Virus record (IMG/VR): IMGVR_UViG_2778261223_000002
Length of the DNA: 19,638 nt
Reading direction: 5' to 3' (one strand)
DNA from: a virus
Lineage: Duplodnaviria > Heunggongvirae > Uroviricota > Caudoviricetes
Shown here: piece by piece, positions 1,608-2,321 of the stretch
How positions within the stretch are numbered: position 1 is the stretch's first letter
How the letters are laid out: each line of letters opens with the position of its first letter
Notes under the pieces: model-generated
The model's input: the letters and a program-made list of their open reading frames with translations, nothing else
Database searches by the model: none
What the model was told of the DNA's origin: nothing
Translations under genes and position numbers: made by a program

Positions 1608-2321
1608 ATGGCTGTTGTCTGTTCAGTTATCATGGTTTGCTCCCCAATTAATATTTTTCTTGAAAAGGATACGTTGTCACTTAAGCCCGGCTCAGTTGTT
1701 TTGGCCACCAAATGCATCAGGGAGCTTTTCCTTATGCATTATGGCAAAGTTAAAATTGTCGATATAAACCATTCTATAGTAAGTCAATATCTGGAAAGTC
1801 AGCATAAGCTGACAAGAACTCCTCTGACTGACATTCCGCTTTACTTGTCGCAGGAACCCAACAATCCTGCGTTGGCTGTGGCTTTAATTACCAGCCAGAG
1901 ACTTTCCGGAGAGACCACGGACATGTTTCTTATGATGGCCTGCCTGTCGTTGTTTGAATCAGATGAACGGATGTTATTATTTTTAAGTGGATGTTTATCC
2001 AGTATAAGTGCCAAAGTCAGAGCGATAATTCAAACAGATATATCAGCAAGCTGGACGCTTGGTGCGATTGCTCTACAGTTGCATATGAGTGAGAGCTTGT
2101 TAAAGAAAAAACTCAAGGATGAAGGTCTCAGGTTCAGTAATTTGTTACTTGAGGAACGGATGCGGGTTGCTGTAAATATGTTATGCTCCCGGCATGGATA
2201 TGGACAGGCTGTAGCAGAAAAATGCGGTTATTCAAGTAGATCCTACTTTATCTCTGTATTTCACCGCTATTATGGCTTCCCGCCAGACAGATATGTATCT
2301 ATGCAAGGGCTTGATTTTTGA
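1608..2321 (+). CDS. AraC-family transcriptional regulator, AppY/PatE-like
   Basis: 237 aa; C-terminal AraC-type HTH (LKKKLKDEGLRFSNLLLEERMRVAVNML ... GYSSRSYFISVFHRYYGFPP); N-terminus MAVVCSVIMVCS ... KVKIVDI resembles recollected AppY (MDYVCSVVFICQ ... KLRIVDI). Possible promoter TTGATG(1542)-N19-TATAAT(1567). Confidence 0.75.
   Translation: MAVVCSVIMVCSPINIFLEKDTLSLKPGSVVLATKCIRELFLMHYGKVKIVDINHSIVSQYLESQHKLTRTPLTDIPLYLSQEPNNPALAVALITSQRLSGETTDMFLMMACLSLFESDERMLLFLSGCLSSISAKVRAIIQTDISASWTLGAIALQLHMSESLLKKKLKDEGLRFSNLLLEERMRVAVNMLCSRHGYGQAVAEKCGYSSRSYFISVFHRYYGFPPDRYVSMQGLDF

Follow-up and report, generated by a model that had tools for sequence, protein, structure and literature searches.

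A predicted Psr-type AraC regulator gene on a moron cassette in the late region of a lambdoid phage sequence

The late region of the lambdoid phage sequence analyzed here carries an AraC-type regulator gene between the Q antiterminator gene and a cluster of tRNA genes, and this raises the question of which regulator it encodes and what that regulator would do in a lysogen. The window, by which we mean the whole stretch of 19,638 nucleotides that was analyzed (IMG/VR record IMGVR_UViG_2778261223_000002), contains an intact ORF of 237 aa at 1608-2321 on the plus strand, with an ATG start. The ORF list, the PGAP call and the two-helix-turn-helix domain found by Pfam all agree on this ORF and its AraC-family nature, as originally predicted. 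PGAP calls the equivalent of 1608-2321 in an identical stretch of Escherichia coli UMNK88 as WP_096098552.1, under the product label 'helix-turn-helix domain-containing protein'. Residues 155-229 matched Pfam HTH_AraC at 47.2 bits (cut-off 26.6) and HTH_18 at 41.1 bits (cut-off 33.6), and the protein thus possesses the C-terminal domain of approximately 100 aa with two helix-turn-helix (HTH) motifs that characterizes AraC/XylS regulators. Its N-terminal domain of approximately 130 residues is of the GadW/YdeO/AppY/PatE type and begins with the MxxxCSV motif common to that group; a Pfam search of the N-terminal half identified no sugar-binding or AraC_binding domain. The best NCBIfam alignments, both sub-threshold, were to YdeO over the full length and then to GadX. 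The YdeO equivalog NF007407 scored 109.9 bits against a cut-off of 348, and the GadX equivalog NF007432, which aligned with the C-terminal part only, scored 91.1 bits against a cut-off of 500.

Structural comparison gave a similar picture. Sequence matches in the PDB were to the GadX DNA-binding domain (3mkl, the best match, E = 1.3e-19), Rns and ToxT. An AlphaFold model built from a 12-sequence alignment (pLDDT 65; about 60 in the N-terminal domain) placed seven helices in residues 134-232, and its top Foldseek matches were Rns, CsvR and ToxT over the full length, together with the GadX DNA-binding domain (43-46% identity). Global superposition on Rns, CsvR and ToxT was poor (TM about 0.3) because the N-terminal domain of the model is of low confidence, and the predicted structure therefore supports the family assignment only. 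Rns and CsvR of enterotoxigenic E. coli (ETEC) and ToxT of Vibrio cholerae are virulence regulators of the AraC family that share the two-domain plan of the window protein and, like it, lack a classical sugar-binding cupin signature in Pfam; their identity to the window protein in structural alignments was 14-20%.

A sharper placement came from BLASTP of the window protein against proteins extracted from reference genomes. The O157:H7 Sp4-type copy (TW14359/TT12B; the Sakai ECs_1087 locus) was 91.6-92.0% identical at the amino acid level, and Sakai ECs_2191 (Sp11), when extended to the 237-aa start, was 91.6% identical. Both O157 paralogues aligned with all 237 of 237 residues, colinearly and free of gaps, and the window protein shares its 237-aa length (PGAP start) with them. 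O157:H7 genomes typically carry two psr copies; compared with each other, these were 90.7-91.1% identical, in agreement with the 90% published for PsrA and PsrB, which describes PsrB as the closest homologue of PsrA (PMC10877973, PMC8565820). The window protein and the O157 protein also fall into a common 90% protein cluster. This near-identity and full-length colinearity place the window protein among the Psr proteins of O157:H7, and by sequence the gene appears to be a third Psr allele, approximately equidistant from PsrA and PsrB. The window allele differs from each O157 paralogue by 20 substitutions, five of which lie around the first HTH. The Sakai annotation gives both ECs_1087 and ECs_2191 as 195 aa from an internal start; the PGAP calls and the alignment with YdeO favour 237 aa.

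Which O157 copy is which was assigned from prophage content. The two psr copies were found in Sp4 (ECs_1087, beside pchA) and in Sp11 (ECs_2191). The prophage of ECs_2191 ends with nleG2-3/nleG6-2/nleG5-2 and carries pchB, and from this island gene content we take it to be the equivalent of OI-57. On that assumption ECs_2191 is PsrB and, by elimination, ECs_1087 is PsrA; the ECs tags are thus linked to z1789 and z2104 through prophage content and elimination rather than through the z1789/z2104 sequences directly. Reviews locate psrA (z1789) in OI-50/CP-933N. No psr gene was present between Q and nanS at this site, either in Sakai Sp6 or in the re-sequenced EDL933 CP-933N, and no psrA was present in Sakai Sp10. 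An association with pch or type III secretion system (T3SS) effector genes on the same prophage, as at the O157 loci, was not seen in the window, where the ORFs checked across the 19.6 kb included no pch/PerC or T3SS effector gene. Effectors usually sit downstream of the tail genes, a region that lies outside the window, and the association is one reported for EHEC and not a property of the Psr protein.

Comparison with the other named regulators revealed much lower similarity. Identity to the window protein was 37.9% for the PatE candidate ECs_0287 (Sp1), which was taken as PatE (z0321, OI-8) by location and product only, 35% for GadW with homology over the full length, 30.5% over 233 aa for AppY (K-12 b0564), and 29.7% for YdeO (K-12), again over the full length; GadX was 39% identical over its C-terminal two thirds only. 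Neither AppY nor the PatE candidate reached orthologue-level similarity, and judged from these identities the window protein is only a distant cousin of both. The closest named relatives in this BLASTP and HMM comparison with AppY, PatE, YdeO and GadX were all acid-stress AraC regulators, as the original prediction anticipated; since these are its nearest relatives and no sugar-binding domain was found, the protein is not a member of an unrelated, sugar-binding AraC subfamily. The proposed AppY/PatE-like affiliation stood as membership of the AppY/YdeO/GadX/PatE group, but not as closeness to PatE (38%) or AppY (30%), and PsrA/PsrB-type, at about 92%, is the more exact description.

These relationships also bear on the breadth of the regulon. 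The window protein and the PatE candidate are both prophage AraC regulators of the same clade, they align over their full length and both begin with MxxxCSVI, and the published function of PatE, activation of gadE and hdeA, is the same as that of PsrB; the PatE candidate is located at the right end of a remnant prophage, whereas the window gene lies between Q and the tRNAs. AppY (DLP12), YdeO, GadW and GadX belong to the same AraC subgroup and share control of gadE and acid-resistance system AR2, but they are too distant to be orthologues of the window protein; YdeO, GadW and GadX are chromosomal, and the N-terminus of GadX differs. One could therefore ask whether the protein is functionally of the AppY/PatE type, with a wider regulon (hya, app, anaerobic and phosphate-starvation genes, RpoS stabilization) in place of the narrower Psr role. 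The common clade and N-terminal motif, the full-length alignments to AppY, YdeO and GadW, and the fact that AppY also activates gadE and AR2 are compatible with such a role, but set against 92% identity to PsrA/PsrB the 30% to AppY and 38% to the PatE candidate, and scores far under the YdeO and GadX equivalog cut-offs, make it extremely improbable.

The position of the gene was examined next to that of the O157 loci. RusA (52-417) precedes the Q gene, which is of the phage 82 type and occupies 408-1082 on the plus strand (PF06323, E = 1.9e-90; PHROG 304 'anti-termination protein Q-like', E = 3e-107; the PGAP start is the ATG at 414). Directly after the Q stop, a consensus scan identified a candidate late, PR'-like promoter, TTGCAA-N17-TATATT, at 1087-1115 on the plus strand (9/12), so designated by position only. 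It is followed at 1166-1197 by a plus-strand intrinsic terminator, a CCCGCC-TCCGA-GCGGG hairpin and a run of seven T residues, which was recognized from the sequence, by a hairpin scan and by folding; in the fold of 1120-1200 the hairpin precedes the U-run. From position only, we infer that this hairpin is the Q-responsive tR'. No further plus-strand terminator-like site was found in a scan from 1197 to the tRNAs. The order of Q, terminator, psr and tRNAs fits the proposed placement between tR' and the tRNA cluster in the late operon, of which the tR' identity is the part given by position only. If 1087-1115 is the late promoter, a terminated RNA of approximately 75 nt (window 1120-1197) would be made constitutively in the lysogen; its fold z-score was only -2.0. 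In Stx phages, a short PR'-tR' transcript is reportedly a regulatory sRNA.

The sigma70 promoter proposed for psr, TTGATG-N19-TATAAT, was found exactly at 1542-1572 on the plus strand as far as the position of the motif is concerned, with TTGATG at 1542-1547, TATAAT at 1567-1572 and a non-canonical spacer of 19 nt. The consensus scanner chose an alternative with the same downstream hexamer, ATGAGA-N16-TATAAT (1545-1572; 10/12), which was the best promoter-like site in 1000-3800; the seven such sites in this interval compare with 4.7 +/- 2.3 expected and are not above chance. A relaxed pattern, TTGA-N18-21-TATAAT, had one match in the window on both strands against 0.11 expected. Because at least one match also occurred in 19 of 200 shuffles, the motif by itself is a suggestive candidate and not significant. 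Both hexamers are kept at the TW14359 and Sakai Sp11 loci, where most of the flanking DNA is conserved too.

Comparison of related phages defined the gene as part of a discrete insertion. PhiSTEC1575-Stx2k, which carries psr, and PhiR47_1, which does not, are 96% identical up to ...AAACACGCTGGTGG (window 1214-1227), after which the former contains the cassette and the two rejoin at tRNA-Ile. The terminator hairpin and about 45 nt 3' of it belong to the part shared by these two phages; being common to phages with and without the psr cassette, the 1166-1197 hairpin is phage backbone. The cassette, comprising a TrmB-like remnant, the candidate promoter and psr, spans about 1.1 kb (about 1228-2331, plus strand) and, where present, separates the terminator from tRNA-Ile; in other related lambdoid phages it is missing. 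It has the features of a phage moron: it is a discrete indel, it contains a promoter-like site, and the GC content of the psr gene is 41.6% compared with 51.3% for the window, although no terminator of its own follows downstream. Low GC is typical of morons. The order Q, terminator, TrmB-like ORF, psr, tRNA-Ile also occurs in Sakai Sp4 and Sp11, TW14359 and phiSTEC1575-Stx2k, and window 1168-2569 is a block common to the window and the O157 and Stx2k loci. The window gene thus occupies the same cassette and the same position as PsrA and PsrB, in the late region of a lambdoid prophage between Q and an ileZ tRNA. The loci differ further downstream, with tRNAs for Ile, (pseudo-Lys), Thr and Gly in the window and for Ile, Arg and Arg at the PsrA/PsrB loci.

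The cassette originally consisted of a small TrmB-like winged-helix ORF and psr. In the window the TrmB-like gene is a pseudogene (1310-1479, plus strand), unlike at the Sakai PsrA/PsrB loci: a TAG codon interrupts it in frame at 1322-1324, its reading frame shifts near 1393, and part of its C-terminus is deleted. Searches by tblastn with the intact proteins of phiSTEC1575 (73 aa) and Sakai ECs_2192 (65 aa) split over two frames with a stop, PGAP labels the remnant 'frameshifted', and the DNA alignment agrees; the TrmB Pfam match itself is weak and sub-threshold. Elsewhere the TrmB-like ORF is a pseudogene in TW14359, intact in phiSTEC1575-Stx2k and annotated in Sakai (ECs_2192, ECs_1086). It corresponds to PHROG 331, which is without annotation.

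In phiSTEC1575 the order is Q, TrmB-like ORF, psr, tRNAs for Ile, Arg and Arg, stx2kA, stx2kB and lysis genes, which puts psr in the classical cargo slot of lambdoid phages. The same arrangement might suggest that psr is directed chiefly at the phage, its expression from the late operon tuning the tRNAs, the stx locus in Stx phages or the timing of lysis instead of the host acid regulon. Such a role would fit the constant location of psr in the late transcription unit, immediately before the tRNAs, its place just upstream of stx2kAB in phiSTEC1575-Stx2k, and the small TrmB-like ORF, a second DNA-binding one, that was its original partner. However, PsrA and PsrB, at 92% identity, act on host gadE, yhiF and hdeA, the cassette is dispensable to the extent that the near-identical phage PhiR47_1 lacks psr, and no phage target is known; we consider a mainly phage-directed role very unlikely.

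The function most probably follows that of the O157 proteins, for which, as for PatE and AppY, the functional statements used here come from reviews of experimental work. In these accounts, PsrA and PsrB elevate GadE and YhiF, which in turn leads to repression of the T3SS; PsrB binds the gadE promoter and the hdeA promoter region from -132 to -45 and improves survival in acid, and the gadE/hdeA acid-resistance regulon is also the target of PatE and AppY (PMC10877973, PMC4456613, PMC10057817). By analogy, the window protein most likely activates the gadE/hdeA acid-resistance genes. In a lysogen, it would bind to AT-rich promoters in the host's acid fitness island (gadE, hdeA), activating the GAD/AR2 acid-resistance regulon and leading to increased acid survival, and in LEE-positive hosts the rise in GadE and YhiF would indirectly repress type III secretion. 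Basal expression would come from the conserved sigma70-like promoter at 1542-1572, as its position and sequence suggest, and upon prophage induction Q-modified RNA polymerase would be expected to read through 1166-1197, so that psr is co-transcribed with the tRNAs and lysis genes. As a whole, a Psr-type regulator on a moron cassette that activates GAD/AR2 and is expressed from its own promoter and by Q read-through is in our judgement a highly probable explanation. The proposed lysogenic-conversion regulator is well supported by the identity of about 92% to PsrA/PsrB, while the role itself is assigned by analogy.

Comparison with the O157 genes also indicated selection on the protein. Against either O157 paralogue dN/dS was 0.17-0.19 overall and 0.11 in the DNA-binding half; as estimated from these alignments, the overall value indicates a functional protein under purifying selection. 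The SESLLK sequence of the first recognition helix (161-166), the ERM motif and the second HTH (CGY..SYF.SVF) were invariant or nearly so in 12 homologues down to 39% identity. An identical protein is kept in two differently decayed prophage copies, in the pig strains UMNK88 and O139:H1 W13-16. With its GC of 41.6%, the psr gene could be silenced by H-NS, and this raises the alternative of a silent passenger, an H-NS-silenced AT-rich moron whose effect on the host would not be measurable in this background. Besides the low GC relative to the window, such a passenger is suggested by the decay of its TrmB-like partner in the same cassette, by the occurrence of the same allele in the decaying prophages of UMNK88 and W13-16, and by a review stating that deletion of psrB alone had little effect on secretion, from which it follows that not every psr copy has a visible phenotype. 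On the other hand, the low dN/dS, especially in the DNA-binding domain, a full-length ORF and identical protein kept while neighbouring phage genes were deleted or frameshifted, and the wide occurrence of relatives described below argue against it. A silent gene is unlikely on this balance, though it is the alternative to which we give the most weight.

Relatives of psr were detected by blastn in 810 of 5426 complete E. coli genomes. The window allele, at a nucleotide identity of at least 99%, was present in 28 of these genomes, mainly pig ETEC and edema-disease strains; 39 genomes fell between 95 and 99%, and 659 between 90 and 95%, the band that holds the O157, O26, O111, O103, O145 and O104:H4 type. 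Window 1100-2700 was 100% identical in pig ETEC UMNK88 and several other pig E. coli, and all the strains among the matches listed were from pig or wild boar. The exact protein is already present on about 790 contigs in public collections. Among sequenced phages, a close psr copy was found only in phiSTEC1575-Stx2k (94.5% amino acid identity), and other lambdoid and P1-like phages carry more distant AraC relatives (30-41%). As ETEC are generally regarded as LEE-negative, the T3SS branch of the mechanism is probably not applicable in ETEC carriers; a LEE-negative host would be left with the acid-resistance branch only.

The host range leads to one further alternative. Five of the 20 differences from the O157 paralogues (positions 167, 171, 174, 175 and 178) lie at the first HTH recognition helix or immediately beyond it, and with this clustering the target preference of the window allele could differ. 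The third Psr allele may accordingly have diverged near this helix to control something other than the GAD-LEE circuit, for example fimbrial or toxin genes, or may, like Rns and ToxT, respond to a fatty-acid ligand, in this case one from the gut. We regard such a divergence as improbable; if true, the window allele would be a host-species-specific regulatory adaptation and not a redundant copy. Under the preferred reading, GAD/AR2 activation by a Psr-type protein, the window gene is an ordinary variant of a known lysogenic-conversion gene, with nothing that departs from the described prophage AraC regulators of the GAD system. The additions are minor, namely the window allele, its distribution in pig strains and the boundaries of the cassette; the significance is modest and no new biological question is raised. 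Work on the Psr cassette has so far concerned EHEC O157:H7; the present comparison shows that lambdoid prophages of pig-associated E. coli carry it as well, and that in a phage from an STEC strain it immediately precedes stx2k. A prophage of this kind could hence supply a regulator of acid survival either together with a toxin or in place of one. Annotators gain a specific name for a protein labelled in hundreds of genomes only by its helix-turn-helix domain.

The cassette is followed by the tRNA cluster, all of it on the plus strand. The first gene, at 2348-2423, is a tRNA-Ile2 of the ileZ type (anticodon CAU), which ARAGORN calls Met and PGAP tRNA-Ile, and which is homologous to Sakai ileZ1/ileZ5. 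It is followed by a decayed tRNA-Lys(UUU)-like pseudogene (2424-2503), a tRNA-Thr (UGU; 2504-2576) and a tRNA-Gly (UCC; 2584-2658). The Lys-like remnant aligns with the intact tRNA-Lys of PhiR47_1, which ARAGORN identifies as such, and differs from it at 8 positions; its stems still pair, the D-loop GG is gone and position 33 is C, and neither ARAGORN nor Rfam (E <= 1) detected it. Derivation of the tRNA-Thr(UGU) from argO (UCU) by an anticodon change was considered and rejected, as the two tRNAs show only a distant resemblance and the Ile-Lys-Thr-Gly set also occurs in PhiR47_1. Rfam searches of 1083-3760, at the gathering threshold and at E <= 1, identified nothing besides three tRNAs; sRNA matches were well under their thresholds (STnc100, 27.6 bits against 47). 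The 3' end of a tRNA recurs as a direct repeat of 31 nt (90%) at 2471-2501 and 3354-3384, on either side of tRNA-Thr, tRNA-Gly and about 700 nt of ORF-poor DNA. The second copy lies within an ARAGORN 'tRNA-Val(aac)' at 3303-3384 that had no Rfam tRNA match at E <= 1 and is therefore probably a tRNA fragment or recombination scar.

Downstream of the tRNAs, no convincing ORF is seen over about 1.1 kb (2660-3750), at the site that stx occupies in Stx phages. Plus-strand terminator-like hairpins occur in this stretch at 3020-3045, 3218-3250 and 3411-3437. In the O139:H1 W13-16 prophage the tRNAs and the holin are within about 460 nt, and related pig-strain prophages differ here. The ORF-poor stretch is followed by a TerB-like gene, two holins, an M15 endolysin and then lambda-like packaging, head and tail genes. 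Colinearity of the whole window with the UMNK88 prophage was rejected, as it fails beyond about 2700, and in the complete E. coli genomes of the collection at most about 83% of the window was found at a single site. To the right, the window consists of a structural module like that of mEp460 and PhiR47_1, with 98-99% identity to mEp460/Ayreon-type lambda-like structural genes from about 6300 on; the window is thus a mosaic with a junction near 2660-2700. An ORF of 197 aa on the minus strand (5530-6123), flanked by the lysis genes and the terminase, gave a weak His_Phos_1 match just over the cut-off (22.8 bits) and is a possible second moron.
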